55,206 nucleotides of DNA from a bacterium (GTDB lineage Bacteria; Patescibacteriota; Minisyncoccia; Phycocordibacterales; GCA-002787175): positions 1-55,206 of the forward strand of contig JAUYKQ010000025.1 of NCBI GenBank assembly GCA_030699905.1. The letters are read 5' to 3'. Positions 1-53,689 of the stretch are shown piece by piece. Within the stretch, counting starts at the first letter, position 1. Every line of letters starts with the position of its first letter. The notes under the pieces are model-generated. The model saw only the letters and a program-made list of their open reading frames with translations. It searched no databases and was not told where the DNA came from. The position numbers and the translations under genes are program-made.

Positions 1-22
1 TTCACATTCCATGTGATACGTA
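1..22 (-). repeat. edge of a further rRNA hairpin insertion (E0), truncated by the window
   Basis: tcacattccatgtgat is identical to the right edge of E3 (1836-1851) and close to that of E7. Confidence 0.5.
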
Positions 23-140
23 CCGCCGTTATTTGACCTTCTGGCATTGGTCAAGTGTCACCCCCTATACATCCTCTTTCGAGTTCGCAGGGAGCTGTGT
101 TTTTGATAAACAGTCGCCAGGCATACTTTAGCTGCGGCCC

Positions 141-287
141 AGCGCGCAAAGCGCGCAAATCACAAGTTTGTAAAGTAAAAAGTTTATCAAGTTTATCAAG
201 TAAGAACGGAAAATTTTGTTTTTACTTTATAAACTTTACAACTTTATGAACTTTCAACTTGATGAACTGCGTGCTTTGCACGCCAGG
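141..287 (-). repeat. rRNA hairpin insertion E1 (variable helix-63-like position of domain IV)
   Basis: Clamp gcgcgcaaagcgcgc ... gcgtgctttgcacgc encloses AT-rich arms of aagtttat/aagtaa words. Conserved 23S sequence resumes on both sides. Confidence 0.75.
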
Positions 288-820
288 CAGGCCTTATCGC
301 TAACTTACGGCCGCTTTTTTGCCGAGTTCCTTGGAGACCTCTCACTCGTTCGCCTTACTCTACTCGAGCAGATCACCTGTGTCGGTTTGCGGTACGGTTT
401 TCATATAACTGAAGCTTAGAGGATTTTCTCGGAAGGCTCTTCGCGAAGATTTTCCCCCGAAGGAGAATTTCTCCCGAAAACGCGCATGGTATTAAAACCA
501 GCTCTTCGGATTTTCCTGAAAAGCTACGCTCATTTCAAGAGACGACTAATCCAATAAAGCGCCTCCGCTTGTTTCCTTCGTCCCCCCATCGCATTATATG
601 AAAGTCACGGAATATTAACCGTGTGTCCATCGGGTCCGGCATTCGCCATCCCCTTAGGCCCGACTAACCCTTGGCTGACAATCATCGCCAAGGAAACCTT
701 GATCTTTCGGCGTGCGGGTTTCTCACCCGCATTGTGGTTACTTGTGCCAACATTCTTGCTTCCAAACGCTCCACCATGGGTCACCCCTTTGGCTTCATCG
801 CAGATTGGAATATTCTCCTA

Positions 821-950
821 CCGCGCCTCGCGCAAAGCACGCGAACGCCGATTGTCGCCGATAAGACGCCGATGTTCGCGGATGAAATTCATCCGCGTTA
901 ATCCGCGTTTTATCCGCATATTATCCGCGTTCTTGTGCTTTGCACAAGGC
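821..950 (-). repeat. rRNA hairpin insertion E1b (helix-45-like position)
   Basis: Clamp cgcgcaaagcacgcg ... cttgtgctttgcacaag. Arms are built of cgccgat words on the left and atccgcg words on the right. Confidence 0.7.
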
Positions 951-1189
951 ACCCTCAGTTTCGGTACTACGCTTAGCCCCGATTATCTTCGGCGCAAATT
1001 CTCTTAGCGAGTGAGCTGTTACGCTTTCTTTGAATGATGGCTGCTTCTGAGCCTACATCCTCGCTGTCTTTGAAAATTCACCACCTTGAGATGCACTTAG
1101 CGTAGATTTAGGGACCTTAACTTGAGATCCGGGCTGTTTCCCTTTTGACGAACGGAGCTTAGCCCCCGCCGTCTAACTGCCACACTCTA

Positions 1190-1317
1190 CCGCGCAAAGC
1201 GCGGAAGTTACAAGTTCATCAAGTTTGTAAAGTCTGTAAAGTTTGACGGGGAAATTCCCCTTCCGACTTTATGAACTTTATAACTTTATAACTTTATAAA
1301 CTCCGTGCTTTGCACGG
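1190..1317 (-). repeat. rRNA hairpin insertion E2 (domain II)
   Basis: ccgcgcaaagcgcgg ... ccgtgctttgcacgg clamp. Arms are caagttcatcaagtttgtaaag / ctttatgaactttataactttat. Loop is gacggggaaattcccc. Confidence 0.75.
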
Positions 1318-1696
1318 TTCTTCTGGTATTCGGAGTTTGATAGGTCAAGCGAGCTTTCGCCCTGTCTTAACCTTCCAGTGCTCTACCCCCAAAAGGAACG
1401 TGTGACGCTAACCCAAAAGCTATTTCGGAGAAAACCAGCTATTACCAGATTCGATTAGCTTTTCACTCCTTACCACAGGTCATCCGATAGTATTGCACGG
1501 CTAACCGGTTCGGGCCTCCATCCGCCTTTCGGCGAACTTCACCCTGCCCATGGCAAGCTCATCTGGCTTCGGGTCTTTAGTATACGACAAACGCGCTATT
1601 CACACTCGGTTTCCCTACGGCTCCGTGCTTTAGAGGCACTTAGCCACGCCGCATACTAAAACTCGTTGGCTCATTCTTCAATAGGCACGCCGTGAC

Positions 1697-1860
1697 CGTC
1701 GCATCACGCGAAACGCGAAATCAGTTTATAAAGTAAAAAGTTATAAAGTTCATCAAGTAAGAAAAGCGAGCCTCTAAAATCCGGCATCGGTTTTACTTTA
1801 TGAACTTGCAACTTTATGAACTTGATAAACTTAAATCACATTCCATGTGATGCGGCGGCT
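1697..1860 (-). repeat. rRNA hairpin insertion E3 (helix-25-like position)
   Basis: ccgtcgcatcac ... gtgatgcggcgg stem base, internal mini-hairpins gcgaaacgc and cacattccatgtg, and AT-rich word arms. 142/155 nt identical to E7 by manual alignment. Confidence 0.8.
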
Positions 1861-2163
1861 CCGACTCCTTGTAAGCATATGGTTTCAGGTCTATTTCACT
1901 CCCCTCACCGGGGTTCTTTTCACCTTTCCCTCGCGGTACTAGTTCACTATCGGTCTAAAGAAGTATTTAGCCTTACCGGTTAGTTCCGGCAGATTCCCCC
2001 AAGCCATTCGTGTCTTGAGGTACTCAAGAACAAAAACAAAGAAGTTATTTTGCTTTCATGTACGGGGCTATTACCCTCTGGGGCAGTTCTTTCCAGAACT
2101 TTCCATTAACAAAATAATTTGTAACTTCCCTCGTATAAATACAACGTTTTTGTCTTACAACCC

Positions 2164-2308
2164 CTCGCGCGAAGCGCGCTGAACTCGACACGAATCTACG
2201 AATAGAAGATGCGAATGACACGAATAAAATCAAGTTTTGTTAATTTTATTCGTGTCATTCGTTCTTTACATTCGTGTCATCAGTGTCATGTACAGTGTGC
2301 TTCGCACA
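2164..2308 (-). repeat. rRNA hairpin insertion E4 (uses the cgaata/gcgaat word family)
   Basis: cgcgcgaagcgcgc ... gtgtgcttcgcacaa clamp. Arms are acacgaatctacgaatagaagatgcgaatgacacgaataaaat / attttattcgtgtcattcgttctttacattcgtgt. Confidence 0.75.
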
Positions 2309-2352
2309 AGGTTTGGGCTTCTGCGCTTTCGCTCGCCGCTACTGACGCAATG

Positions 2353-2510
2353 GGCGCGCTCCGCACGCAAGTTACAAGTTGAAAGTTTGAAAGTTGAAAG
2401 TCAAAAGTTGAAAGTCAAAGAAGGACGGAGTCCTTTCTTCACTTTACGAACTTTATGGACTTTTTACTTTATAAACTTTTTACTCTATAAACTGCATGCG
2501 AAGCACGCTT
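2353..2510 (-). repeat. rRNA hairpin insertion E5 (domain I)
   Basis: gcgctccgcacgc ... gcatgcgaagcacgc clamp. Arms are made of gaaagtt/caaaagtt words paired to actttat/aacttt words. Loop is ggacggagtcc. Confidence 0.75.
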
Positions 2511-2552
2511 GTTTTCTTTTCCTCCAGGTACTGAAATGTTTTACTTCCCTGG

Positions 2553-2690
2553 GTGCGCTCGCGCGAAGCGCGAGCAAGTCAAAAGTTCATAAAGTTATAA
2601 AGTTTATAAAGTAAAAACAAAATCTGTCGTTCTTACTTGATAAACTTGATAAACTTTTCACTTTATAACTCGTTCGCGCTTCGCGCGTCT
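2553..2690 (-). repeat. rRNA hairpin insertion E6 (helix-9/10-like position)
   Basis: gcgctcgcgcgaagcgcgagc ... gttcgcgcttcgcgcg clamp. Arms are aaagttcataaagttataaagtttataaagt / acttgataaacttgataaacttttcacttt. Confidence 0.75.
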
Positions 2691-2847
2691 CGTGCAAGCA
2701 CGAGGGGTTTCCCCATTCGGACATCTCCGGATCAAAGGTTGCTAGGCACCTCCCCGAAGCTTATCGCAGCCAAGCTACGTCCTTCATCGCCTTCTTTAGC
2801 CAAGGCATCCACCATATGCTCTTAATTTCCTATTAGGAAACTTGTAT

Positions 2848-3012
2848 CCGTCCGCATCACGCGAAACGCGAAATCAGTTTATAAAGTATAAAGTTATAAG
2901 GTTCATAAAGTAAGAAAAGCGATCCTGCAAAATCCGGAATCGGTCTTACTTTATAAACTTGCAACTTTATGAACTTGATGAACTTAATTCACATCCCATG
3001 TGATGCGGACGG
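2848..3012 (-). repeat. E3-like hairpin element E7 lying just upstream (5') of the mature 23S 5' end
   Basis: ccgtccgcatcac ... gtgatgcggacgg perfect stem base. 2854-3008 is 142/155 identical to 1701-1855. Confidence 0.8.
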
Positions 3013-3646
3013 TTCTTAATCCTGTTACATGGAATCTGAAGCTTTCCGCCACAACGCAGAAAACTCGCACCATCACCAATTAACGCTTTCACATCAACAA
3101 ATTTAGTTTTGAGCGTAAAACAAAGTTTTACAGCCAAAAATCATGAATTTGGGTGAAAGGTTGACTGAAGACGGTATCACTCCACATAACTTTCAATATC
3201 GCGCCAACCAAATTGGCGCGAGTTACCTTTTCCGTTTTCGGCACGCAAGACCCCTCGCATTTGCCGCAACGGGATTAATTTGTCAAAGAGGCAAGCTCTC
3301 TCTGTCAATTACGTTATTCTGTATCCGCTTCGCCGCTCTTTTATAAGAACCGCGGAGCCGACACGGAAAGGGTTCATTTTTAATAAAAAACCGCCCTCTT
3401 GTCGTGAGCGGAATTTAAAGCACAACCAAAGGCACGGGTGCTTTATTTTTTCCGCTTTTTAAATCGGGTAGTCACCATAAAATGTAGCTCCAAGTATATA
3501 CCAACCGTATTTATTGTCAATCTCTTGAATAACCCCACCTATTCTTGTGCTCTCGCGGAAAGAAGCGAGAGAATTTTCAATAAATCAATTTTCAAACAAA
3601 GAAACAAGCAAGGCGGGATGAATATTGACCACGAATTTGATGCATT

Positions 3647-3697
3647 GAAAATTTCGGGATTTGATTGAAAATTGAAAATTGCAAAATTGAAAATTTT
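3647..3697. repeat. half copy of the gaaaattg word element
   Basis: gaaaatttcgggatttgattgaaaattgaaaattgcaaaattgaaaatttt closely matches the right arm of the 6121-6231 hairpin. Confidence 0.6.
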
Positions 3698-3756
3698 CTC
3701 TGTCATTCTGATGACGGAGGATTTAAAAATCCCTCCCCCTTCGGGTACCCAAAGAT

Positions 3757-3784
3757 AAAACCCGCGCCTACGGCGCGGGTTTTA
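3757..3784 (-). terminator. intrinsic terminator (bidirectional shape)
   Basis: acccgcgcc-tacg-ggcgcgggt stem flanked by A-run and T-run, 80 nt downstream of the 3864 stop. Confidence 0.7.
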
Positions 3785-3863
3785 TCTTTGTGATTTTGCA
3801 AACTCCAAACCTTGCTACCACACCAAACATTAGCCCAAGTTAAGAGACAAATCCTTTTACTTC

Positions 3864-4556
3864 TTACTTTTCTCTGGTTGCTATTTCCACCCTTATCTTT
3901 TCTATAAGTTTAGAGGCCGCGTCCTTGCCCCCCAGTCCGAAAGCCAACCCAAACCCCAAAGCCAAGGCCACCACAAATCCCGTAAACAGCGTCTGAACAA
4001 AGGGAGTGGCGACACCGAGATGGAAAAGAGCGATAAGTACGGCAAAAATCCAAATGGCCCACCTTGAAGCCACGCCGATAAAATTCGCGGACTTAACACC
4101 TGCCGCTTGTGCTCCTCCTCTTACTACGCGGTCAACAACGTCGGAAATAACGGCGGCGACCAGAAGAATAAGAACGGCCACTATAACCTGCGGTAGATAA
4201 TTAAGCACTACATTACGCAAGAATTCGTTTACTTGCGTCAATCCCAAAACGTCAAAAGAAGCGACCAAGAACACGACAATGATAAACCATTTTACCAAAC
4301 CGCCGATAAATTCTCCCGAATCAAGCTTAAAACCCGCCCTTTCTATCATCAAGTCAACTTTCGCGCTTTTAAGAGCGGCGTCAACTTTAAGAGCCCTGAT
4401 TATCTGTGACACGACTCTGCCCAAAAGTCCTCCCACCGCCCATCCGATAAGGAAAATGATAATGGCGATGATCAAACTCGGCACAAAATCGGCTACACCC
4501 ATCCAAATATCGCGGAATGAATCTCTCAAAACATCACTCCAAGTTTCTAATGTCAT
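3864..4556 (-). CDS. polytopic membrane protein, conserved-TM-helix-repeat / MscS-like N-terminal type
   Basis: 230-aa ORF with ATG start and repeated hydrophobic helices (IIAIIIFLIGWAVGG, VAVLILLVAAVISD, WAIWIFAVLIALF). Confidence 0.6.
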   Translation of the reverse strand: MTLETWSDVLRDSFRDIWMGVADFVPSLIIAIIIFLIGWAVGGLLGRVVSQIIRALKVDAALKSAKVDLMIERAGFKLDSGEFIGGLVKWFIIVVFLVASFDVLGLTQVNEFLRNVVLNYLPQVIVAVLILLVAAVISDVVDRVVRGGAQAAGVKSANFIGVASRWAIWIFAVLIALFHLGVATPFVQTLFTGFVVALALGFGLAFGLGGKDAASKLIEKIRVEIATREK

Positions 4557-4722
4557 AAAAGTTTGTTTATGTTGTTAGCTGATTGTTAATCTAATACGTC
4601 CGGCTTGCGCCCCGACCTATGGACGTTTTTTTTCCTCCTTCAATTATACCAACAGTTGGACATGTTAAAATAATGAGTGTGGAAAACTCGTATCCGAACG
4701 GCGAACTACGAAAATCCATAAC

Positions 4723-4791
4723 ATAATGCGAACCTACGAACTATTCGAATACTACGAACAAGGAGAACGGTTTCCTTAGTATTCGCATTAT
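4723..4791. repeat. about 69-nt hairpin element (tacgaa/gcgaat words); inverted copy at 27598-27666
   Basis: gcgaatacta...tagtattcgc stem. rc differs from 27598-27666 at about 6 positions. Overlaps the stop codon of the 4788 gene. Confidence 0.7.
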
Positions 4792-5420
4792 ATTCTCTTC
4801 TCATTCAGCCCTATTTTATCCAAAAGCGTCTTATGCGGATAGTCCAAAATATCCCTGATTAACTTGTCATACATTCCAAGGCGGTATTTAAAGTCGTCAG
4901 TCGCAAAAACGGCGAAAGAAAGCTCTTTGCCTATCTCCGCCTCAATATCCTTGATAATGTTTTCCAAAACCTTGTCTTTAATGCGGTCTCCAACAACCAA
5001 AATATCCACTCTGCTGTCAAAATCCCGTATAAAAACTCCCGCCACTACGACAAGTTTAATCTTGCCGGCAAAGTTAAGTTTCCTGACAATCTCTTCGTTT
5101 TTTATAAGCACCGTATATATGAGGAGCTGTTGAAACTGCGAAAGATACGGAAACCCTTTTTTCAAAATCCAGCCATCTTCTCTTTTTTTCCTAAGAACTT
5201 TCTTATTTTCCTTTGTCTGTTCAACCGTCCGTGTAAACACTTTACCCGTTATGAGCCCTGACTTTTTGAGAACAAGAAGTTCGCGTCTGACGGCGCTATC
5301 TCCCAACTTGGCCCTTCGCGCGATATCCTTGCTTGAAAAAGCTGTTTTAGGGTTGAACAAAAACAATCGCATGATTTTTACACGCGCTTCGCTCCCGAAC
5401 AGTTTGCTTAAAATCTCCAT
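4788..5420 (-). CDS. winged-helix DNA-binding protein with small nucleotidyltransferase-like C-terminus
   Basis: ORF-track start (5474) is GTG; first ATG is at 5420 (MEILSKLFGSEARVKIMRLF...DIARRAKLGDSAVRRELLVLKKSGLI). C-terminal RVDILVVGD. Confidence 0.6.
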   Translation of the reverse strand: MEILSKLFGSEARVKIMRLFLFNPKTAFSSKDIARRAKLGDSAVRRELLVLKKSGLITGKVFTRTVEQTKENKKVLRKKREDGWILKKGFPYLSQFQQLLIYTVLIKNEEIVRKLNFAGKIKLVVVAGVFIRDFDSRVDILVVGDRIKDKVLENIIKDIEAEIGKELSFAVFATDDFKYRLGMYDKLIRDILDYPHKTLLDKIGLNEKRI

Positions 5421-5544
5421 AATGCTAAAAACCGCGATTTGTTGAAAAATCGAGAAAATATACCACCAATCCACATATTATATCATTTTTTTAAAATTCC
5501 GCCATGCCCGCCCCGTTAGAAACGAGGGTTTAACAGGACTCGCC

Positions 5545-5596
5545 GAAAAAACAGAAAGCGGGTTTGCTTCGCAAACCCGCTTTCTGTTGTTTTTAT
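5545..5596 (-). terminator. intrinsic terminator after rplL (bidirectional shape)
   Basis: acagaaagcgggtttgc-ttcg-gcaaacccgctttctgt 17-bp stem with flanking A/T runs. Confidence 0.8.
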
Positions 5597-6111: not shown

Positions 6112-6120
6112 AATGTAATT

Positions 6121-6231
6121 CAATTTTCAATTTTCAATTTTGCAATTTTCATTGAATTTTTCAATATTCAATTTCCAAATTGGAAATTTCGGGATTTGAT
6201 TGAAAATTGATAATTGTAAATTGAAAATTTT
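6121..6231. repeat. about 110-nt hairpin of caattttc/gaaaattg words in the rplJ-rplL spacer
   Basis: Left arm caattttcaattttcaattttgcaattttc, perfect palindrome tttccaaattggaaa at the centre, right arm ttgattgaaaattgataattgtaaattgaaaatttt. Confidence 0.8.
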
Positions 6232-6260
6232 AATCTAAAATCTATTAATATTCTGGCGAT

Positions 6261-6752: not shown

Positions 6753-6760
6753 GAGAGTTA

Positions 6761-6833
6761 TCTCTAATCAATACATAATCAATCACTAATCAATCCCTAA
6801 TTAAGAACCGAATTTTCTCTAATCAGATTTAGA
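6761..6833. repeat. ctaatcaat / cccgaat word element upstream of rplJ
   Basis: tctctaatcaatacataatcaatcactaatcaatccctaatt...ttctctaatcagatttagag. Same words occur at 25967-26013 and 52788-52875. Confidence 0.6.
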
Positions 6834-7158
6834 GCCAGATTCGGGAGCGCATATTCGCATCCAATTCGGGATTATTCGAGTAAACACTTTCGACCTTTTT
6901 AAAGCCAAACTCCGTCCAGAAGGACGGAGCCAAATAGAAATCCGTGCAAAAAAGCACAGAAACCTCGGCAGGATCCTTGCGGATTATTAAAGCTTTCGCT
7001 TCCTGTCCCGAAGCCGACCTTTCGGTCAGCTTCGGGACCCCGACTAACGTCGGGGCTGTCTTTGGCCTTATGAAGGAAACATTACCAAAAACGCGCCCTT
7101 TTGGCAAATTTTGCAATAAGGGCTTTGCGTATTCTGCATTGCCAGCCGATGGGTGGGC

Positions 7159-7242
7159 GTCGCAAGGGAAGTTCCAAAAAAGTGACCGCTCCAAGGGCGC
7201 TTGCCTAGGGCTCAGTCACTTTGTTGGAACTTCCCTTGCGAC
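7159..7242. repeat. MITE-like palindromic element, copy A (diverged outer arms)
   Basis: gtcgcaagggaagttccaaaaaagtgaccgctccaagggcgcttgcctagggctcagtcactttgttggaacttcccttgcgac. Core is shared with 12323, 20038 and 33419. Confidence 0.75.
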
Positions 7243-7279
7243 GCAGAGTCAAAACAGGAGCTCTGTAATTTGAGATATT

Positions 7280-10200
7280 TTATTCGCCATCTGAATCACC
7301 TTCGTCATCTTCCCCTTCCTCTCCATCTTCCTCTGCTTCCTCGTCCTCATCTTCTTCGCCTTTTTTCCCATCTTCTCCTTCACTCCCTTCTTCATCACCA
7401 TCTTCTGTTCCTTCTTCTTTTTCTGTTTCTTCTTCCTCCGCCATACCGGCCCATGGAATAAACAAAACATTTCCGAAAACCACATCTCCCAAACCAGCCG
7501 GATTATCCGTTTCGTGTTTCGGCCCGGACAAATCTCCCCAATCGTTGTTTTTCGCTTCAACCGGTTCATCCGTGGCGGAATAAACGGCCGTTTCATTGGC
7601 GAAAAACTCGCTCCCGCTTATTAAAACTTGACCGCCGTAAACTTCGGCCCCGATACCGTTTCCCGATATATCGCTTTGCTCTACCGAAAGTTTTCCTCCA
7701 TAGATACTGATTCCAACGTTGCTGTACGATATTTCTGAATTTGAAATCTCCGTTTCGCCGTCGTAAATTTCAACCCCTATATCATTTAGAGTAATCTCGC
7801 TATCTTTTATTTCCACGACTCCCCCGTAAACTTCAATGGCCGTACCGGAAAAGTTTTCGGCTTTTATGTCTTCCAGCAAAAGGGTTCCGCCGTCCTCGTT
7901 ATATACTTCAATACCGCTACCTAAACCTCCGGCAAAATAAACGCGGTATATTTCAGCATCGCTTGAATACAGAGCAAGGGCGGCATTGTCCGCAATATTT
8001 TTTATTTCACCGTCTTCAAAATGAAGAGACGAACCTTCATATGCGACAATCACATCTTCTTGCATAATGTCTGAAAAAACCGCTTCCGAAAGGACGAGGG
8101 AACCGCCGTCATAGACGAGAACCGCTTCGTTTTCAATCCTTTCGGCGAAAAATTCGGACACGGAAACTTCGGTCGGACCAGCCACCACCAGCGCATTCTC
8201 GCTGTCAGATACGGAAATATCGGTCGCGGTGAAATAACCACCGTTTAGGAATTCAATGCCCTCTCCCCACTTCAGAGCAATGTGCGACAAAACCGAATCC
8301 TCCGCTTCTTTGTAAACAAGGAATTTCCACGGCTTTACGGCATCAGGAGAAGTGTCGCCGTCGCCATTTGTGTCCCCTCCCGATTCGTCGTCAAATATGG
8401 AAGTCAAAACCACAGGACTTTCTTTTGTCCCTCCAGAAATGAATTTGCCGGAAAGATAAAGAGAAGCGCCAGGAGCGAATTTTATAACTGTTCCCTCTTC
8501 TGCCTGAAAGACAGCGCCGGACAAAACGACCTGATCCTTCGCTATGAGATAAGGCCCTTCCGAAGCGGCGACTCTCACTTCACCCGCGATATGCTCCCCT
8601 TTGTTTATAAGATACGAAACGCTATTTTTAACTCCCGGTGTTCCGTTTACACTGTTCCCTTCGGCGTCTTTTCCCCTACGTATGATTTCAAGATTGTTGC
8701 CCCAATTTTCAGAGTCGGCTCCCGACAAAAAACTGTTTCGTCTTTCCATGGAAAGTTTTCCTGCATTTTCTCCAGCTGTCCATCCGGAATCCGCGTCGGG
8801 AGTGGAATCAAACGTTACGTCATTGAAATTCAGCTCAAGCTTTCCACCTCCGTTTGAAAGAGACCACTGTGACGCCCCGTTTCCGTAAAGCATATCGGGC
8901 GCCACGTCTGAAAAGGGCCCCGTCTCGTCCGTGGCATTTGCCATGCGTCCCAATACGAAATGTGACATAGGAGCAATCTCTCCCGAAAGCTCTATTTCCA
9001 AATCGTCAGAAACAGCTCGGATAGACCAGCCGGATAAATTTATGGAAAACGGCGTATTATTGTAAAGTTCCAGCCACTCGTGCCTTGAATTATCTTCCGT
9101 CCCCATCCATGCCACTTCGTTTATGACTACGGGAGAAGTGAAAACGGAAACTTCCATCGCACTTGTAGTAGACATGTTACCCGCGCCGTCCTCGGCCGAG
9201 ACCGAAACAGAGTGAGAACCGCCGTCTGACAGAGAGGCAACAGTGCTTGTCGCCTCTGTGGAAGAAACCTCCCCGTCAATATTCAAAAAATAATGAGTCA
9301 CGTCGTCTCCGGTAGACGTCCAATGAATATAAACTTCCGTATCAGTCAAAAGACAGCCGTCCTCCGCAAGAGAACTCTCGCAAGCCGGAATATAAATACT
9401 GACTTCCGGTGACTGAGAGTCCACGCTGAAAGAAACAGTCGTCGGATCGGAAACATTGTCGCTCTCGTCCGTTGCAAAAAAAGATATGTCATGTTCACCG
9501 TCTTCAAAAGACAGAGTCAAAGACCAGATGCCACTTTCGGAGACAATGGATGTTTCCGAGTTGAAGCTGTTGCTTACAGTGGTGGCGCCTTCCGCGACAC
9601 CGCTAAATATCAATATCCCGTCTGTAAACACTTCGGAAAAATCCGCCGGCTCCGTGACAGAGGGTGACTCCGGCGGTTTGGTCTCTGAACTTTCCTTGTC
9701 GGTAACGTCTTCAACAGTCAAACTACTCTCGCCTTTTCGGCTTCCTCCGCCGGAGCCACCCGAGAGTCCCGAAAACACCACAGCCACTTCTTTCAAATCT
9801 TGTGACTGCGGGGAAAAAGAAGAGTCGGCCAAAGCGGGCGGATTGTTTTGGCTGTCCAAAACAATCCGCCCGTTTTCACCCCCCGCCTCCGCTACAGCCG
9901 ATACTTCCTCTTCGTCCCCCCTACTGTTATCCACCTCTCGCGAATTAAAAAGCCCCTCCACGTTTTCACCGCTTACTGCGCCTGAGTCGCCTATGTTTTG
10001 AGATGTATTCTGCGCCACTACAGAAGAAGACACTTTGTCAGAAGAGTCCGTGGCTACGGCGGAAGACGCCACCAGTGTTTCAGGGTCAACGTCTTCTAAA
10101 ACGGAAAACAGGAGCTTCCCCGCTCCGGACACCGCCCCTAAAACAGCTCGGCCTGTTTTGTGAGCAACTTTCGCGGAAACCTCCGCAGTTTTCATTACAC

Positions 10201-11811: not shown

Positions 11812-11880
11812 TCCAAGTGTGGATAACTGATTGTATCAACTACAGAGTGTCAATGTCCACAATGAATGTGCTAAACTTCA

Positions 11881-11913
11881 AAAACGCCTAATACTGGCAG
11901 TATTAGGCGTTTT
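11881..11913 (-). terminator. intrinsic terminator (bidirectional shape)
   Basis: aaaacgcctaatact-ggc-agtattaggcgtttt. Confidence 0.7.
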
Positions 11914-11974
11914 TGCGTTGCTGATATCACTACCAGGTATTGATACAACAGAGCCCGTACCGTATCACAGTTGA

Positions 11975-12322: not shown

Positions 12323-12451
12323 GAATTACGAAATAAGGCAGGCACCCCCCACGAGGAAAGTCACAAAAAAGTGACTAAGACCGGGCAAGCGCCCTTGGAG
12401 CGGTCACTTTTTGGGGAGCTTTCCGAGTGGGGGGCAGATGTTTCGTAATTC
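12323..12451. repeat. MITE-like palindromic element, copy B (inverted relative to copy D)
   Basis: gaattacgaaata...cccccacgaggaaagtcacaaaaaagtgactaagaccgggcaagcgcccttggagcggtcacttttt...tttcgtaattc. Confidence 0.85.
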
Positions 12452-12616
12452 AAAGATTTGACTAAATTGTAACCCGCCTATTGATTTAATGCCAACTTTT
12501 CGGGCGTAACCCCTCACACCTATCAGAAAGTGGTTTTATTCCTCCTTTTTAAAGGAGGTGTCACATTCTTATGTGACGGAGGATTTCCAAAATCCCTCCC
12601 CCCCCGCGTCCCCTCG

Positions 12617-15463: not shown

Positions 15464-15624
15464 AATTTGATTATATCACAACCGACTTTGGATAAAAACA
15501 ACCCAGTTCTAACTCTAAGTGCAACGCCAATGTGACTGCTCTCACCTCTTATTCATAAATCCTAAATCATAAATCGTATCTCTCGTACCTATCCTTCTTA
15601 ACTAAACTTAATTAAACTTACAAC

Positions 15625-15656
15625 AAAAAACCACACCGTTATGGTGTGGTTTTTTG
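15625..15656 (-). terminator. intrinsic terminator after the surface-protein gene (bidirectional shape)
   Basis: aaaaaaccacacc-gtta-tggtgtggtttttt. Confidence 0.8.
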
Positions 15657-15781
15657 TTTGTTAGACGGAAAGCCCATGGGGCTCTCGTCTATACGTGTCG
15701 GGCCGAAATCCCGACTGGAGGAGAACCGTGAATATTCTTCACGATACCCTTACCAAACCGACTTAGAATCCTGCGGAACGA

Positions 15782-19237: not shown

Positions 19238-19370
19238 AATTTTCTTAATAATTTGCAATCTATACTCCGGGTTACTTTATAAAACATTCGGAGATTTGAA
19301 ATTGCATTTTGTGACAAACCTGATCTTGTAATACCAAGTTCGTCTCTTTTGGCTTTTACGCCGGTCTTTA

Positions 19371-19483
19371 CAGACCTGCTGTGTTGTAGCAATATCCCGA
19401 ATCAGACCCGAATTTAATTCGCGAATATTCGCGAAAAGAATTTAGAAAAAGATTTAGAGACATTACTGCGACACAGCAGATCT
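19371..19483. repeat. long hairpin with cccgaat / ttagag / cgcgaata words in its loop region
   Basis: cagacctgctgtgttgtagcaat (19371-93) pairs with attactgcgacacagcagatctg (19461-83). Confidence 0.6.
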
Positions 19484-20037
19484 GTTTCGACAAAAACCCG
19501 CTTAAGCCGCTTTTAAACTAAACTGCTAATACTAAACTAAACCCACTTCAACACGCACCGAGACCAAGGATGTTTTTATTACAAACTTGGTTCCGACGCA
19601 GTCAACATTAAGACGTGAAGCATATTCTTTCATTACAACCAAATAGGGACATTCTTCCTTGCTGTAAGTTTACGCCATATTCATATTGTCAACGAACCAT
19701 CACAACGCTGTCAGACCATGTAAACAAAAAACTCTCTCGTGTCAGTATTCCAAACATGACAGAGCTGTAAATACAGCTCCCGCATGTTTCAATGAATTAT
19801 ATACCCAGAAATATGGCCTGCCAACAAAATATAATGTGGATAACTTTCCAAAGCACCTCCCGTTTCCTCTTATTTGGTCCCAAAGGAGGGAAAAAGAGGC
19901 CAAAACGTTAGGGTTTCTGAAAAATAACCCATTAAAGCAGTATCGCATATAGGAGGCAAAGAGTCAATTTCAGGCCACTAAATGGGAGGGGGGAGCAAAG
20001 AATGAGATAGGAGATAGGATTTAGGAGATAGGAATTA

Positions 20038-20170
20038 GGAATCACGAAATACGGCAGGCACCCCCAAGAGGAAGTTGCAAAAAAGTGACCGCTCCAAGGG
20101 CGCTTGCCCGGTCTTAGTCACTTTTTTGCGACTTTCCTCTTGGGGGTAAAAAGCGGGTATTTCGTAATTC
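20038..20170. repeat. MITE-like palindromic element, copy C
   Basis: ggaatcacgaaatacggcaggcacccccaagaggaagttgcaaaaaagtgaccgctccaagggcgcttgcccggtcttagtcacttttttgcgactttcctcttggggg...tatttcgtaattc. Confidence 0.85.
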
Positions 20171-21170: not shown

Positions 21171-21235
21171 CCTAAAAGTCAAAACTTGGTACGCCTATGA
21201 GCGTCGTTTTTTGATGTCGGCTTTCTACAGCCGTC

Positions 21236-21244: not shown

Positions 21245-21250
21245 GTTTGT

Positions 21251-25347: not shown

Positions 25348-25350
25348 CAT

Positions 25351-37612: not shown

Positions 37613-37653
37613 CGGTAAATTATAGCACAGCGAAAAAGTTATTAGAATATCTT

Positions 37654-37694
37654 GAATTACGAAATACGGCAGGCGTCCCCCGAGGAAAGTCACA
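37654..37694. repeat. MITE-like element, truncated half copy E abutting the recO stop codon
   Basis: gaattacgaaatacggcaggcgtcccccgaggaaagtcaca equals one arm of copies B and D. Confidence 0.7.
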
Positions 37695-43200: not shown

Positions 43201-43863
43201 ATTTATTTCGGATTTCGGATTTCGGATTTGGAATTTCGCCGTTATCGACAAGTCCTTGACTGTCTCATATCCTTGAGCCAACTCGTGTGACGAAAGCGCC
43301 GTCCCGCATCTCGGGCACCACGGCACTACTTTGTAGTCCTTATACAAAAGCCCCTGCTCGTCTATTTTCTTTACTATGTTCCAAACCGATTCTATATAAT
43401 ACGGCTTGTAGGTAACATACGGGTGTTCCAAGTCAATCCAATAGCCCACCCTCTCCGTAAATTCTTCCCATTCGCGCACGTATTTCCAAACGCTCTCTTT
43501 GCATTTTTGATTGAACTTTTCAACGCCATACTCTTCAACTTCTTTTTTTGACTTAAGCCCGAGTTCTTTTTCCACCTGTATTTCAACAGGCAGTCCATGA
43601 GTATCCCAACCGCCTTTTCTCCGCACGTAAAAGCCACGCATTGTTTTGTATCGCGGTATGGCATCTTTAAACGCTCGGGACTCCAAGTGGTGAATTCCCG
43701 GCTTGCCATTGGCGGTAGGAGGCCCTTCGTAAAAAATGAATTCCTTGCCGGAGTCCTTGTTTTTTTCAAGAGTTTTTTCAAAAATACGGTTTTCCCTCCA
43801 CAACTCCAGTATTTCTTGCTCCTTTTTTGCCCTTTCCGAGCGGACATCTTTTTTGTCAGTCAT
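40219..43863 (-). CDS. ileS: isoleucyl-tRNA synthetase (type 2-like) with a nested histidine-phosphatase domain and several word-repeat insertions
   Basis: PPTANGKPGIHH (HIGH), TTPWTLPGN, ISRERYWGTPLPVW, VMDVWFDSG, GKKMSKSLGNVIDP (KMSKS). ATG at 43863 (MTDKKDVRSE...). Confidence 0.9.
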   Translation of the reverse strand: MTDKKDVRSERAKKEQEILELWRENRIFEKTLEKNKDSGKEFIFYEGPPTANGKPGIHHLESRAFKDAIPRYKTMRGFYVRRKGGWDTHGLPVEIQVEKELGLKSKKEVEEYGVEKFNQKCKESVWKYVREWEEFTERVGYWIDLEHPYVTYKPYYIESVWNIVKKIDEQGLLYKDYKVVPWCPRCGTALSSHELAQGYETVKDLSITAKFQIRNPKSEINSKLKIQNGKPTYMLAWTTTPWTLPGNVALAVNPNITYVRIGITNQESGIKEEYILAKERIGNVLKDKEFEIIEEFTGGELVGLEYEPLYPFLAKALNPEALNPAFKVYSADFVTTEDGTGIVHTAVMYGQDDFQLGTKEGLPKYHLVNEDGTFKKETGFLSGKQVKTESTDVEIIKDLAHRGLLFAKEKYEHSYPHCWRCHSALIYFARDSWYIKMSDKKIKDKLVKENKKINWEPEYIKEGRFGEWLKDIKDWAISRERYWGTPLPVWICPQIQTGKISGSEFKIFEGEELQKTDSKQKGCGKTRVVGSFEEIFKLGAGRPLTRLILLRHGESQKNIDGIFDSERDKYPLTKEGKKQAKEAGKKLAALGVDALYSSPVLRARETADIVAENIKIKNILDDRLWEVKSGQWDGKEPQDSLINRNRLDYNGLPDEKYYLTPRGQTGESWKQVEDRMSDFVREILEKHKGETVAIVSHEGPLIFLLRYLKNLSLQEVTNLWQERRTFKRGLLGGYAEASFVYVDNSTGKELDPHKPRVDEISLICKCGGEMKRVKEVMDVWFDSGAMPFAEDHYPFKNKDYIDEKGYPADYICEAIDQTRGWFYTLHAIGVLMGKGAAYKNVISLGHLLEAKGKKMSKSLGNVIDPKEQMEKYGADALRFWMYSVNQPGEAKNYDEKTVDEIVKKVFNLADNVLQFYLLYSKDGTHNMEHATSEKGHVLDKWVLARLGQLVGEVTEGLDNYKLLEPARAIREFIGDLSQWYLRRSRDRIKEGDKEALTTLRHVLIELSKLLAPFTPFFAEHLYQSLHDTCYTLHDKSVHLEEWPKHGTWNMEHGTKMLEDMEEVRRIVSLALEQRAKASIKVRQPLNKLKVKSLKFKVGDEQMINLVKDEVNVKEVVLDDTISGEVEIDTEITPKLKEEGTVREFIRAVQDLRKKKGLNPSDSVVLKVKADDTGKAFLEKNKSEIQKTAGLKDMSFEDVATENIAIENLFFSLDI
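40575..40606 (-). repeat. in-frame word patch in ileS (aactttaa words)
   Basis: ctttaaactttaaacttttaacttttaacttg encodes KLKVKSLKFKV. Confidence 0.55.
40703..40731 (-). repeat. in-frame gttccatg x4 array in ileS
   Basis: gttccatgttccatgttccatgttccatg encodes HGTWNMEHGT. Confidence 0.75.
40764..40793 (-). repeat. in-frame gtgtagcg-family word patch in ileS
   Basis: catgtagcgtgtagcatgtatcgtgtagcg encodes HDTCYTLHD. Same words as the intergenic hairpins at 26296 and 52104. Confidence 0.7.
41072..41100 (-). repeat. in-frame gttccatg-like patch in ileS
   Basis: gttgcatgttccatgttgtgtgttccatc encodes DGTHNMEHAT. Confidence 0.6.
41620..42235 (-). other. histidine phosphatase (PGAM / His_Phos_1-like) domain nested inside ileS
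   Basis: TRLILLRHGESQKN (RHG), YSSPVLRARETADIV, VAIVSHEGPLIFLL. Canonical IleRS sequence lies on both sides, with no stop codons. Confidence 0.75.
42367..42407 (-). repeat. 17-bp perfect hairpin inside ileS
   Basis: ttgcccgtttggatttg-cgga-caaatccaaacgggcaa. The mRNA-sense 5' arm encodes conserved LPVWIC; the 3' arm encodes the non-canonical QIQTGK. Confidence 0.85.
42891..42924 (-). repeat. in-frame tandem duplication/word patch in ileS
   Basis: caggatttagggcttcaggatttagggctttagc encodes KALNPEALNPA (tandem ALNPE/ALNPA). Confidence 0.65.
43181..43238 (-). repeat. in-frame word patch in ileS (cggattt / gaatttt words)
   Basis: ttttgaatttttaattttgaatttatttcggatttcggatttcggatttggaatttcg encodes NPKSEINSKLKIQNGK. 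Confidence 0.65.
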
Positions 43864-43969
43864 ATATAGACAGTTTAAGGTATTTTCGGCCTTTTTCCAA
43901 ACGTGTACACCGGCCATGAACAACAAACCGTATGCCAATGGAACCACAGTGTTCGTTTCAGCGCAAACT

Positions 43970-47799: not shown

Positions 47800-49020
47800 T
47801 TATGAGCGCAAAATTTTATCTATTTTTTTGGCAATCAATCGCATATCTTTTTCTTTCTTTCCGCGCGTGGTTTCCGCCGCAGTTCCCAGCCGAATGCCGG
47901 AAGGGTCAACTGGTTTTCGGGTATCAAACGGAATAGTATTTTCATTAACGATAATTCCGGCTCGTTCCAGTTTGTCCGCCGCTTCGCGCCCACCGATACC
48001 TTTCCCGCCCTGCCATACGTCAACGCGCAGAAGATGCGTCTCTGTCCCTCCCTCCACAATTCTCCAACCGAGCTTGGCTAATTCGTCCGACAGAGCTTCT
48101 GCGTTCTTCACTACCTGCGTAGCGTATTTCTTGAATGCCGGCGTATCGGCTTCTTTGAGGGCGACGGCCACCGCCGCGATAGCGTTGAAATGAGGGCCCC
48201 CAAAAAGACCGGGAATGATAATCTTGTCTATTTTCTTATCCAACTCACGCTCATCCTTTCGCGTAAATATCATGGCCGAACGAGGACCTCTAAGCGTCTT
48301 ATGCGTCGTCGTGGTTACGATATCGGCATAAGCAAAAGGCGACGGATAAACCTTGCCGGCAACAAGCCCGGCGAAATGAGACATATCCACCATTAAGTAC
48401 GCTTTCTTTCCACTTTGCTCAGGGTAAACCACCGCATCGGCAATTTCTCTAAATTTCTTAAAATCAACAATATGAGCGTACGCGGTAAATCCCGCAACGA
48501 TGATATTCGGTTGATTTGAAACGGCGATTTTTTTGACTTCTTCATAATCAAGTCGTTCGTCTGTTTTACTGACGCCATACGGCACTTGCGTCCAGAACTT
48601 TCCCGTCATGGATACCGGCTGACCATGCGTGAGATGCCCGCCATGGGAAAGCGTCATGCCCATAATTTTACCTTTCGTGGTCGGCTGTTGGTTGTCGGCT
48701 GTCGGTGGCAAAAGCGCCGAATACACGGCGAAATTTGCAGGAGAGCCGGAAAGCGGCTGAACGTTTACACCCCACTCGTCTTCGCTTAGACCGAAAAGTT
48801 TGAGAGCTCGTTTTCTGGCAAGGTTTTCAATCTCATCCACCACCGCGCATCCGCGATAATAGCGCCTGCCAGGATACCCTTCCCCGTACTTGTCGGTAAG
48901 CTCGCTTCCTAAGGCGGCAAGCACGTCTTTTGAAACGTAATTCTCCGAAGCGATTAAATTTATCACTCCCTTCTGCCGCTTTTTTTCAGCATCAATTAGT
49001 TTTTTTATTTGTTTGTCCAT
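47800..49020 (-). CDS. glyA: serine hydroxymethyltransferase with two short in-frame insertions
   Basis: ATG at 49020 (MDKQIKKLIDAEKKRQ). LIASENY, HGGHLTHG, VTTTTHKTLRGPR (PLP lysine). Confidence 0.9.
   Translation of the reverse strand: MDKQIKKLIDAEKKRQKGVINLIASENYVSKDVLAALGSELTDKYGEGYPGRRYYRGCAVVDEIENLARKRALKLFGLSEDEWGVNVQPLSGSPANFAVYSALLPPTADNQQPTTKGKIMGMTLSHGGHLTHGQPVSMTGKFWTQVPYGVSKTDERLDYEEVKKIAVSNQPNIIVAGFTAYAHIVDFKKFREIADAVVYPEQSGKKAYLMVDMSHFAGLVAGKVYPSPFAYADIVTTTTHKTLRGPRSAMIFTRKDERELDKKIDKIIIPGLFGGPHFNAIAAVAVALKEADTPAFKKYATQVVKNAEALSDELAKLGWRIVEGGTETHLLRVDVWQGGKGIGGREAADKLERAGIIVNENTIPFDTRKPVDPSGIRLGTAAETTRGKKEKDMRLIAKKIDKILRS
48681..48708 (-). repeat. in-frame word patch in glyA
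   Basis: tcggctgttggttgtcggctgtcggtgg encodes PPTADNQQPT, inserted into the conserved ALL.PGD..LGM block. Confidence 0.6.
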
Positions 49021-52102: not shown

Positions 52103-52103
52103 G

Positions 52104-52212
52104 GCGTATAGCGTGAAGCGTGTAGCGTGTAGCGTCAGAGTATTTCTTTTCCGGCGTTACACGTTACAAGTTACACGTTGTATATTATGGCGTTACAAGT
52201 TACATGTTTTGC
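52104..52212. repeat. about 110-nt gtgtagcgt / acgttaca hairpin in the dcd-thyA spacer
   Basis: Shares a 50-nt identical core (52126-52175) with 26355-26404. Confidence 0.85.
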
Positions 52213-52215
52213 GAA

Positions 52216-52779
52216 TCATTTCTTCTTCCGAGAAGAAATGATTCTCGGCGGGATATATCCAACCCTGTTGTTGCCGTTATACCGCCCCGTCTCGCGATAA
52301 TTTTGCTCGGTTTGGCTTGAGAGTGGCGAGAATGTGAGCTGGGCGATGGACATGCCGGGGCGAAGTATTATCGGCACATTGTTTAGGTTGCAAAGTTCAA
52401 GCGCGACATTTAGGAAGTGTCCGGGGTTTATAAGGGCGGCCGAATTGTGGACCAAAAGACCGATGCGAGCCAGAGACGACTTGCCGTTTACTTCAATAAG
52501 ATAGTGGTCAGAACCGAAATATTCTTTGGAATAGCCGAGAAGAGAAACGCCCGGATGAAGCACGAAAGCGTCGCCGTCTTTGATATTGACTTCGCGGGTC
52601 TTAGGGAAGACCTTGTTAACAGGGTCAATAAAAGTGGTGGTATGCGAGTCGGTAACGATAAATTTGCCCGCCAGAGTAATGTCATAGCTTGCCGGCTGAA
52701 GCTTCCCAACGTCAAAAGGCCTAAGCGTAATGTGCTTTTCCTTGACGGCTTTTTTGATGTCGGTATCTGATAAAAACAT
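52216..52779 (-). CDS. dcd: dCTP deaminase (dUTPase superfamily)
   Basis: MFLSDTDIKKAVKEKHITLRPFDVGKLQPASYDITLAGKF...GKSSLARIGLLVH. Confidence 0.88.
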   Translation of the reverse strand: MFLSDTDIKKAVKEKHITLRPFDVGKLQPASYDITLAGKFIVTDSHTTTFIDPVNKVFPKTREVNIKDGDAFVLHPGVSLLGYSKEYFGSDHYLIEVNGKSSLARIGLLVHNSAALINPGHFLNVALELCNLNNVPIILRPGMSIAQLTFSPLSSQTEQNYRETGRYNGNNRVGYIPPRIISSRKKK

Positions 52780-52787
52780 GGCTTTTA

Positions 52788-52875
52788 TTCTCTAATCAAT
52801 CCCGAATCTCTGTCCCTAATCTTCTCGAATCCTCATTCGGGTTATTCGGGTTTTAAATTAGAGATTGATTAGTGA
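52788..52875. repeat. ctaatcaat / cccgaat word hairpin in the CYTH-dcd spacer
   Basis: ctctaatcaatcccgaat...attcgggttattcggg...attagagattgattag. Confidence 0.7.
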
Positions 52876-53610
52876 CTATTCAATAGTAAAAACTTTGTCC
52901 GTTCCATAATACTCCGCCCAGTGCTCATTGTAAAACTCAAACATCCGCTCCAACCTGTCCTGTGCGAGTTCTTCGACTCCGATTTCTCCCATAAAATCCC
53001 TTATTTCTTTTTCAATCATCTTTACATCATCGCCCTCTTTGCCTGATTTCTCAAATTCAGCCAAATAGCCGTAACCGGCATTTTTATCTATGGTTATCTG
53101 CATATTGTGGGTCTTGCTTTCATACTCCTCCCTCTCGCGCGACCACTTGGCTTGATAAGTAAGACCGGCATCCAAAAGGATTTTATCAAGTTCGTCTAAT
53201 GTTTTAAAAACTTCTTCTTGAAACTCAACCCTGGAAACGCCGTTTGCGCTTGTATCGTCGCCTACGGACGCTTTCATTACAAAGTACACTTTACCGTCCG
53301 CATCCCTCGTACGTATGGAAACCTTTTTTCCTTCCTCGCAAATCTTTTTAAGAGCTTCTTTTTTATCTTCGGCGACAAGAGGTCCGATAATTTCGCACAC
53401 CTTACTCAAGATTTTCCCCCCATTCGCATGAGCGGCATTCGTGGCTGCCGCAATCCCTTGCGCAGCTTGGGATGGCACATTGAAGTAATGATTGAGCTGT
53501 TTATGCTCCCCTTTTTTTGTGAGGGACTTATCCTTTTCGGCAAGCTTTTTTTTGGCCTCTTCGGCTCTTTCTTTGGAACCGAGAAGGGATTTTATTTCTA
53601 TTTCATACAT
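52876..53610 (-). CDS. CYTH-domain protein (CyaB/ThTPase-like triphosphate tunnel enzyme)
   Basis: ATG at 53610: MYEIEIKSLLG (ExExK motif). The upstream part of the track ORF is GC-rich read-through. Confidence 0.7.
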   Translation of the reverse strand: MYEIEIKSLLGSKERAEEAKKKLAEKDKSLTKKGEHKQLNHYFNVPSQAAQGIAAATNAAHANGGKILSKVCEIIGPLVAEDKKEALKKICEEGKKVSIRTRDADGKVYFVMKASVGDDTSANGVSRVEFQEEVFKTLDELDKILLDAGLTYQAKWSREREEYESKTHNMQITIDKNAGYGYLAEFEKSGKEGDDVKMIEKEIRDFMGEIGVEELAQDRLERMFEFYNEHWAEYYGTDKVFTIE

Positions 53611-53612
53611 AA

Positions 53613-53689
53613 CACGACACGAATAAAATACATGAGTATTATAAGCTGATTTGAGGGTTGTGGAAAGACTGGCACGACACGAATAAAAT
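53613..53689 (-). promoter_or_regulatory. 17-nt perfect direct repeats bracketing a TATAAT -10
   Basis: cacgacacgaataaaat at 53613-29 and at 53673-89. rc of 53638-43 is TATAAT. Confidence 0.45.

Follow-up and report, generated by a model that had tools for sequence, protein, structure and literature searches.

Several described systems bear on the short-word hairpins and tandem arrays reported here. Intervening sequences (IVS) are elements of 100-170 nt without open reading frames (ORFs) that form one long stem in place of terminal loops of the 23S rRNA, those of helices 25 and 45 among them; in the candidate phyla radiation (CPR), 23S genes have been found to carry short inserts without ORFs at known IVS sites, these too being sporadic, with copies in different helices alike (Tsurumaki et al. 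2024, PMC11270868). Dispersed heptanucleotide repeats include the short tandemly repeated repetitive (STRR) sequences of cyanobacteria and TAACTGA of Beggiatoaceae (PMC4679880), as well as GGGAATC of Xanthomonas and GGGGAYT of Nostoc (PMC4692102). Rickettsia palindromic elements (RPEs) are about 150 bp long, inserted whole in frame, and encode a conserved peptide (PMC10969869), template-switch mutations create RNA hairpins (Mönttinen & Löytynoja 2022, PMC8794818), and hairpin-forming repeats are known from sponge and other mitochondrial genomes (PMC2800124). Here we compare with these systems the 55,206-nt contig JAUYKQ010000025.1 of assembly GCA_030699905.1 (the window, meaning the whole stretch analysed), a 55.2-kb contig of ~45% GC with nearly all genes on the minus strand, from a tiny uncultured bacterium that searches with IleRS, TatD, L10 and MscS place in the CPR class Paceibacteria. 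Hairpins made of short words occupy helix tips of its 23S rRNA and whole spacers between its genes, and arrays of 7-nt words are read in frame within its conserved enzymes. With moderate confidence we attribute this pattern to slippage, template switching and copying between loci, filtered by selection, and not to one new mobile element; what the contexts share is most likely a mutational regime of this kind. New with respect to the described systems are the density of 23S inserts, the word-array stems, a family common to rRNA and an operon spacer, and the class-wide in-frame arrays in loops of aminoacyl-tRNA synthetases.

A preliminary description of this DNA, made from the letters alone, had proposed that word arrays and hairpins recur beyond chance, and this is indeed the case. 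Tandem Repeats Finder reported 69 merged arrays (1956 nt) in the window against 8.8±2.8 in 30 dinucleotide-preserving shuffles of it, with an excess at period 7 (26 arrays vs 1.3), period 9 (13 vs 1.3) and also period 14. A purpose-written inverted-repeat scan found 30 hairpins scoring at least 42, compared with 0.6 in shuffles (an absolute minimum free energy scan had missed AT-rich hairpins). When codons were shuffled as a control for coding sequence, 12 period-7 arrays stood against 0.58±0.8 and enrichment was seen only at periods 7, 14 and 21 (periods 8-9: 3 vs 2.8). Thirteen pairs among the 26 period-7 arrays share the same heptamer, where 0.42 are expected and 5 was the maximum in 5000 draws, and five heptamer classes each recur at 2-3 positions in the window; both marks of dispersed heptamer repeats, 7-nt arrays above expectation and a unit recurring at unlinked loci, are therefore present. 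No Rfam family was matched by any word hairpin, even at E <= 0.5. The word hairpins were also considered as ordinary terminators, a reading that was rejected, as the genome has a separate set of short, mostly GC-rich hairpins that we read in that role (Table 1).

Chance low-complexity sequence or an assembly artefact, the latter named in the preliminary description as a possible refutation, is refuted by these controls and extremely improbable. It is true that the contig begins within a repeat copy, that AT-rich words raise background similarity and that k-mer nulls are noisy. Against such an origin stand the 8- to 50-fold enrichment over shuffles, the reading frame kept by arrays in conserved enzymes, and the homologous hairpins and arrays in the independent assemblies L081, L087 and L098 (relatives are designated by L numbers). 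In addition, window positions 3718-5461, which include the hairpin at 4715-4790, are 100% identical in short contigs of runs SRR13727534 and SRR26726065, and hence the organism, this hairpin included, was sampled independently. The only same-organism contigs are L096 and L097, both 100% identical; L081 and L082 are likewise identical to each other.

The 23S rRNA gene (1-2835, minus strand) is cut by the window start, and its 2835 nt match only positions 1-1902 of the Rfam bacterial large-subunit model, with about 930 nt of extra sequence. It holds seven complete hairpin inserts and one cut by the window edge, while a paralogous copy lies in the leader; the at least eight insertions first proposed are thus upheld in number, but the segment 2848-3012 belongs to the leader and falls outside the mature 23S. 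Each insert forms a single long imperfect stem, whose body is AU-rich and composed of 8-9 nt words and whose base is a GC-rich clamp (GCGCGAAGCGCG or GUGCAAAGCAC type). The rRNA hairpins measure 126-165 nt (the seven complete inserts 126-163 nt), and their stems have 46-59 pairs and folding free energies (dG) between -59 and -83 kcal/mol. In all eight, the rRNA sense gives better folding than the antisense, and the inserts lie in hairpin-loop columns of the Rfam alignment, i.e., at helix tips. The dominant word family (family 1) is of AAGTTTATA type. With a profile (nhmmer) built from six family-1 hairpins, the only matches are in the rRNA region of the window and in the leader of one relative, which shows that rRNA is the sole context of this main family. 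Among three family-1 copies a single compensatory pair was seen, too few to argue covariation.

The rRNA part shows all testable features of IVS, namely a terminal-loop site, one extended stem-loop, no functional ORF and sporadic occurrence among related genomes, and helices 25 and 45 belong to the classic set of IVS sites (helices 9, 25 and 45). These hairpins fit the short ORF-less inserts of CPR 23S genes (PMC11270868). They are of IVS type, and we infer that RNase III would most probably cut them from the precursor, leaving the 23S fragmented. Unlike described IVS, at least eight inserts are found here within the first 1902 positions of one gene, in addition to the leader copy, their stems are quasi-periodic arrays of 8-9 nt words, and one of them is homologous to an mRNA-spacer hairpin. 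The expansion segments of eukaryotic rRNA, which according to Hancock and Dover reportedly evolve by 'compensatory slippage', offer a further parallel, as they likewise carry simple-sequence motifs on both helix arms at variable sites, and H25, H38, H45 and H63 are expansion-segment sites as well. Eukaryotic expansion segments are retained when the rRNA matures, and mRNA spacers do not share them.

Relatives differ in which of these rRNA sites are occupied. L087 (GCA_030689285.1) is syntenic with the window (proteins 27-80% identical, coding DNA about 68%), and its contig terminates in a leader hairpin with 94% identity to the helix-25 copy of the window and unalignable flanks; within the window, the helix-25 insert is 92-93% identical to the leader copy. 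The leader hairpin, 90-94% conserved in L087, is absent from L098, a contig end of GCA_040384205.1. Over the 23S model positions 1-1430 that it covers, L098 carries family-1 hairpins only at ~283 and helix 25 and has no inserts at the leader, ~160, ~225, H38 or H45. At ~283 its family-1 hairpin takes the place held by a CGAAU-word hairpin in the window. Identity between the two L098 copies is 84%, but only 78% between the helix-25 copies of L098 and the window. Copies of family 1 are thus gained, lost and homogenised within genomes, and they are not conserved rRNA segments.

Such a distribution would also be expected if the hairpins were non-autonomous mobile elements (MITEs, the miniature inverted-repeat transposable elements; repetitive extragenic palindromes, REPs; or IVS-like elements) moved by a transposase or nuclease encoded elsewhere, for example a Y1 enzyme of IS200/IS605 or REP-associated tyrosine transposase (RAYT) type, with the coding arrays as unrelated microsatellites or decayed remnants. 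We consider this explanation unlikely, although several observations speak for it. The dispersed copies have sharp similarity boundaries and are 90-94% identical (90-93% in the window, 94% in L087), as the near-identical dispersed copies of a MITE should be; the hairpin is much better conserved between genomes than the surrounding genes; occupancy of rRNA sites varies, with two genomes having different families at one site; the assemblies of the window and of L087 both break inside hairpin copies, which indicates multiple copies; a Y1_Tnp gene adjoins the rplL region in L085; and the strand-asymmetric folding of the hairpins at 26296-26448 and 52104-52212, described below, is expected of elements recognised as single-stranded DNA. 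However, no transposase domain occurs among the 40 ORFs of the 55-kb window scanned with Pfam, which agrees with the preliminary description. The two spacer copies have no visible target-site duplication or conserved termini, a result confined to these two, as the ends of the rRNA copies merge into host helices. Unit number varies among copies, and a family found only at rRNA helix tips and in the leader would be odd for a general transposon. Moreover, the 5' motif of the rRNA hairpins has no match in JGI metagenome contigs or viral contigs.

Between co-directional genes, hairpins fill the whole spacers of rplJ/rplL, rpsF/ssb, ssb/rpsR and dcd/thyA and that upstream of dcd, and they stop 1-9 nt short of the next ATG (rpsR, ssb, thyA, dcd, rplL). 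All five had been recognised at the outset, the one at 52784-52880 proving weaker, and further hairpins at 3567-3700, 4715-4790, 19370-19485 and 27573-27669 can now be added. The ssb/rpsR and dcd/thyA hairpins are paralogues, of which the former has 34 extra nt of GTGTAGC units and a matching extension of the other arm. The corresponding spacers of relatives are mostly short: dcd/thyA measures 113 nt in the window vs 34-72 nt, unstructured, in 7/7 relatives, rpsF/ssb 123 nt vs 5-47 nt in 15/17, ssb/rpsR 157 nt vs 2-48 nt in 9/13, and rplJ/rplL 148 nt vs 17 (L088), 24 (L085) and 73 nt (L098). In L087 the rplJ/rplL spacer is about 160 nt long and holds a hairpin with other words. Since the relatives' spacers are mostly short and unstructured, the spacer hairpins of the window are derived insertions that recur sporadically. 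In L035 a hairpin particular to this relative, 100-140 nt long, is present in at least four copies (Table 1); its arms are AATTTCT/AATTACC heptamer arrays, so that it has the architecture of the window's spacer hairpins in different words. In L085, which has the closest L10 (64%), a hairpin-flanked Y1 transposase gene (PF01797; 12900-13439) lies just downstream of the rplJ-rplL region.

A Shine-Dalgarno sequence is missing from most window genes, and TATAAT occurs 6-10 nt 5' of the ATG in several of them (e.g., start regions 15464-15490 and 21225-21250); TATAAT placed directly before ATGs suggests leaderless or near-leaderless mRNAs. The idea that hairpins restore the Shine-Dalgarno-to-AUG spacing was dropped, as the genome is almost without such sequences. 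It is rather unlikely, in our judgement, that the hairpins are selected RNA modules, i.e., sites at which RNase III or another nuclease matures or fragments the 23S and cuts polycistronic mRNAs just before the start codon to give near-leaderless mRNAs, with the words as recognition signal. The close approach of the spacer hairpins to the next ATG and the start signals just described are consistent with this possibility, as are the leader copy 13 nt from the 23S 5' end and its conservation in L087, the better sense-strand folding of all 8 rRNA hairpins, and the presence in some relatives of ssb/rpsR and rplJ/rplL hairpins at the same positions with other words. Yet the modules are dispensable, given that in most relatives the spacers at these junctions are short and unstructured and the majority of the rRNA inserts are missing; a single compensatory pair is all that was seen in three compared copies, and the coding arrays are left unaddressed. 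In addition, two spacer hairpins are much weaker in the mRNA sense than on the + strand (26296-26448, -43 vs -70 kcal/mol; 52104-52212, -22 vs -44 kcal/mol). On the + strand these two have one G:U pair per heptamer, and they consequently fold better antisense to the flanking genes; the rRNA hairpins have the opposite strand preference.

The patches in TatD, IleRS, SHMT, GlyRS and MetRS are tandem heptamer arrays of 15-35 nt, read through in frame in variable loops. Their presence in all five enzymes had been foreseen, but they are not hairpins (z -2.3 to +1.9, against -4 to -10 for spacer and rRNA hairpins) and bring net insertions of only 0-10 aa. The proposal of one process writing hairpins into rRNA, spacers and enzymes accordingly goes too far, the coding patches being one-armed arrays and family 1 being confined to rRNA. 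RPEs had been judged a poor fit, and this judgement stands. As in the RPE case, palindromic repeats occur in a reduced genome with intact conserved genes and enzymes have extra peptide segments, but none of the ORFs contains a whole hairpin in frame, so that the definition of an RPE as a whole in-frame element encoding a conserved peptide does not apply.

The coding patches are also not all recent, because several occupy the same sites in many relatives. For example, the identical 26 nt of the TatD GGAACAT array, imperfect unit included, are found at the same site in L081 (TatD 61% identical), and two further TatD homologues retain ATGGAACAT twice at this site; the array is old or maintained. 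Seven matches to (GGAACAT)n were found in viral contigs. In the AlphaFold 2 model of TatD, the loop insertions at aa 163-173 and 196-211 have a predicted local distance difference test (pLDDT) score below 50 and are modelled as disordered; the WNMEH array is at the start of a helix. In IleRS, insertions specific to the window in comparison with 80 relatives are found at aa 249-252, 522-549, 672-679 and 1057-1059, and in the loops of the N-terminal arrays (42891-43238) relatives carry arrays of their own.

The IleRS insertion at aa 522-549 provides the direct case of template switching. At 42368-42405, one arm consists of the conserved LPVWIC codons and the other, a 17/17 inverted copy of them, starts the 28-aa insertion, which is in none of the 80 relatives. 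A perfect inverted copy with a 4-nt loop is the template-switch signature described previously (PMC8794818), where likewise a reverse-complement copy appears with nothing at the site in relatives; unlike those events, this one lies inside a protein-coding gene and is read in frame, and its mechanism may extend to the word-arm hairpins. Two other hairpins, a perfect 14-bp one spanning the dcd stop codon (52213-52244) and a 21-bp near-perfect one inside the gene of a 1286-aa surface protein (9831-9876), may be further template-switch products. As a separate observation, IleRS (40219-43947) contains a His_Phos_1 histidine-phosphatase domain at aa 575-747, upstream of KMSKS (~aa 881); this region is alignable in all 80 Paceibacteria relatives, implying a clade-wide domain insertion in an essential synthetase.

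Table 1. Coordinates of word hairpins, arrays and other repeats in the window (strand given as - or, where none is assigned, as a dot; model positions are those of the Rfam 23S model)
Feature	Position	Strand	Remarks
Truncated family-1 insert	1-30	-	starts at model position 1902, cut by contig end; CGUAUCACAUGGAAUGUGAA
Family-1 insert, 152 nt	137-288	-	~model position 1745; AAGUUNAUN words and GC clamp; dG -67 to -70 kcal/mol
Hairpin insert	825-950	-	helix 45 loop, model position 1218; ACGCGGAUA/AUCGGCG words; dG -78 to -83 kcal/mol
Family-1 insert	1189-1318	-	model positions 921-943, helix 38 tip; 22 positions become 150 nt
Family-1 insert	1696-1858	-	helix 25 loop, model position 583
CGAAU/ACACGAAU-word hairpin insert	2163-2311	-	~model position 283; 5 positions become 132 nt
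Family-1-type insert	2354-2508	-	~model position 225; AAGUUGAAAGUC words; 8 positions become 160 nt
Family-1 insert	2560-2687	-	~model position 160; 9 positions become 110 nt
Family-1 leader hairpin	2848-3012	-	13 nt upstream of 23S 5' end, outside mature 23S
ATTGAAA-word arrays and hairpin	3567-3700	.	intergenic; paralogue of rplJ/rplL spacer element
tacgaa-word element	4715-4790	.	intergenic; 91% complementary to 27600-27665
rplJ/rplL hairpin	6119-6233	.	ATTGAAA/TTCAATT heptamers; ends about 9 nt before rplL ATG
CCCGAAT/ATTCGCGAAT-word hairpin	19370-19485	.	intergenic
ssb/rpsR hairpin	26296-26448	.	GTGTAGC and CGTTACA heptamer arms; occupies whole spacer
rpsF/ssb hairpin	26920-27036	.	CGAAU words; homologous to rRNA insert 2163-2311
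tatD/rpsF hairpin	27573-27669	.	tacgaa/gcgaat words
dcd/thyA hairpin	52104-52212	.	90% identical to 26334-26437, same loop; ends 1 nt before thyA ATG
Weaker hairpin upstream of dcd	52784-52880	.	CTAATCAAT/CCCGAAT words; related segments 6757-6834, 25962-26013
TatD, two small arrays	28003-28017, 28117-28133 (region 28003-28133)	-	in window-specific loop insertions
TatD (GGAACAT)4.4 array	28253-28283	-	encodes RMEHGTWNTEH
MetRS word patch (PNTANEYADTAN)	29780-29814	-	variable region; no net insertion vs closest relatives
GlyRS weak heptamer array	34469-34499	-	net +4 aa vs relatives
IleRS heptamer array	40574-40605	-	KLKVKSLKFKV
IleRS GGAACAT array	40702-40733	-	KHGTWNMEHGT
IleRS GCTACAC array	40764-40793	-	LHDTCYTLHD
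IleRS GGAACAT-type array	41070-41099	-	hypervariable loop, about aa 950
IleRS inverted duplication region	42301-42405	-	perfect 17-nt arms, 4-nt loop at 42368-42405
IleRS N-terminal arrays	42891-42920, 43051-43079, 43180-43204, 43205-43238	-	the first a 15-mer x2
SHMT (AGCCGAC) array	48680-48706	-	9-10 aa insertion, window only
Short hairpins read as canonical terminators	5546-5592, 11879-11915, 15622-15658, 26014-46
GC-rich repeat family	7157-7244, 12345-12434, 20039-20170, 33420-33553, partial 37648-37686
L035 hairpin copies	2040-2179, 2634-2732, 20895-21009, 22545-22663		coordinates of L035

Words are shared between contexts in a family-specific and not in a global manner. The rRNA insert 2163-2311 and the rpsF/ssb spacer are homologous over both arms and in the same orientation (Smith-Waterman z = 17.8); of the links between rRNA and mRNA contexts, this is the only solid one. 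The spacer pair 26296-26448 and 52104-52212 matches IleRS 40764-40793 through GTGTAGC (z = 12), and GGAACAT is shared by TatD and two IleRS sites (TatD-IleRS z = 11). A global vocabulary in coding sequence was rejected, as the 9-11-mers of the hairpins are not enriched there; 10-mers common to hairpins and coding sequence numbered 151 and 142 vs 164 and 187 under the null, whose distributions were noisy. Of the single vocabulary that the preliminary description saw in all three contexts, three specific links therefore remain.

The array and hairpin pattern is widespread in the Paceibacteria group, each genome having its own words. Many of the loci from the 80 relatives are enriched in period-7 arrays, whose units are specific to the genome, and a unit recurring at unlinked loci is also found in L009, L056, L067 and L025. 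IleRS has 78 heptamer arrays in 46/81 genomes, clustered at common loops (about aa 238, 290, 823, 950, 1073, 1115 and 1230). Its words are shared at the same site between genomes in 68 pairs, compared with 27±5.7 expected, and at different sites within a genome in 11 pairs, compared with 4.4±2.1 (P about 0.007); for instance, FKIQDSR occurs three times in L009 and LEAKSDKLEAS twice in L067. Arrays are thus retained at the same loops in different genomes and also trade words inside a single genome. Like STRR, TAACTGA and similar repeats, these are 7-nt arrays with the same unit dispersed, often beside start or stop codons. Unlike them, several units are used per genome, arrays pair with complementary arrays into hairpins, and many arrays are in frame in conserved enzymes at the same loop sites class-wide. 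The mitochondrial hairpin repeats are likewise families that have invaded spaces between the genes of a compact genome in which no transposase can be recognised, but theirs is a different genome type, and the abstract of that report describes neither word-array arms nor heptamer coding arrays.

In the slippage, template-switching and copying scenario, the replication and repair regime of the Paceibacteria host would freely build and copy short repeats, and selection would set where they survive. Slippage of 7-9 nt units would yield the observed tandem arrays, a heptamer preference in bacterial slippage having been noted in many bacteria (PMC4679880, PMC4692102). Fold-back or inter-strand template switching would turn adjacent sequence, arrays included, into its reverse complement and so produce a hairpin in a single event, as is directly seen once, in IleRS, and may apply to the word-arm hairpins. 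Whole hairpins, and sometimes arrays alone, would be copied to other loci and even between genomes, the copies themselves being observed. Purifying selection would then permit survival only at sites to which neither a lengthy RNA stem nor a handful of added residues is harmful, such permissive sites being the terminal loops of 23S helices, complete spacers of co-transcribed genes, Shine-Dalgarno sequences being hardly used in this genome, and surface loops if the array length is a multiple of three. Slippage is favoured by the strong, period-specific excess of arrays and by paralogous hairpins that differ mainly in unit number. Copying is favoured by the near-identity of the leader and helix-25 copies and of the spacer copies, the rRNA/spacer homology, the 94% identical L087 hairpin and the likeness of the two L098 copies, and a selection filter by the helix-tip sites, sense folding, the relatives' short spacers, the low-confidence TatD loops and the clustering of IleRS arrays at common hypervariable loops.

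It should be noted that several points weigh against this scenario. Only one template-switch event is clear, and for the word-arm hairpins this origin is what we infer; no rnc (RNase III) gene is in the window; the far better folding of 26296-26448 and 52104-52212 on the strand antisense to the flanking genes is not predicted by the model; and horizontal transfer of a mobile element or strong functional constraint fits at least equally well a 156-nt hairpin with 94% identity between genomes whose proteins are about 60% identical. The same heptamer at unrelated loci is not explained by slippage alone and needs a further, putative copying step. An active genome-wide mechanism in Paceibacteria, possibly templated by an enzyme or by RNA or single-stranded DNA, could install and homogenise a 7-9 nt vocabulary particular to each genome at permissive sites, with a single machinery for rRNA, gene junctions and loops and with modules exchanged horizontally, but we regard this as quite improbable.

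The mutational regime proposed here would connect rRNA IVS, dispersed heptamers and enzyme loop insertions within one clade and through partly shared sequence. It would give a concrete source for the unexplained short inserts of unusual CPR rRNA genes, and a natural system in which the birth of hairpins by template switching and their growth by slippage could be watched over hundreds of genomes. Fast-turnover repeats in CPR 23S, 16S and aminoacyl-tRNA synthetase genes can mislead phylogeny, primer design and assembly; two assemblies here break within hairpins. Should the spacer hairpins be processing sites before start codons, they would bear on operon-internal translation nearly without Shine-Dalgarno sequences.

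The nearest records to the window are labelled Taylorbacteria, Nomurabacteria or Paceibacterota, and protein identity to the best relatives in the four placement searches is 58-70% (64-70% for the closest homologues of TatD, L10 and MscS); the window ssb found no matching record in its search. According to Pfam scans of the 40 ORFs, the 23S rRNA gene is accompanied by MscS, rplL, rplJ and large surface proteins in the first part, by ftsK, recA, efp, rpsR-ssb-rpsF, TatD, MetRS and GlyRS in the middle, and by IleRS, ArgRS, tmk, SHMT, thyA and dcd in the last part. Upstream of rplJ, the Rfam family of the ribosomal protein L10 leader weakly matches 6907-7005 (minus strand; 31.5 bits, E = 0.24); this segment falls within ORF 6829-7194, which has no Pfam match and is probably not a gene.

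Two other repeat modules were observed. One is a second hairpin repeat family, GC-rich and 88-134 nt long, with core AAAAGTGACCGCTCCAAGGGCGCTTGCC; its copies are 97-98% identical and in every case lie on the 3' side of a minus-strand gene, and none of the relatives' loci or JGI metagenome contigs contains it. The other, three successive mini-hairpins (CCTCCTTTTTAAAGGAGG, GTCACATTCTTATGTGAC, GGAGGATTTAAAAATCCCTCC), occurs at 12506-12602 and 3704-3740 and in L087 at 839-934. It matched nothing in Rfam; its identity between L087 and the window is 88%, against only about 68% for coding DNA, and it may represent a small RNA that is conserved, or a terminator module.

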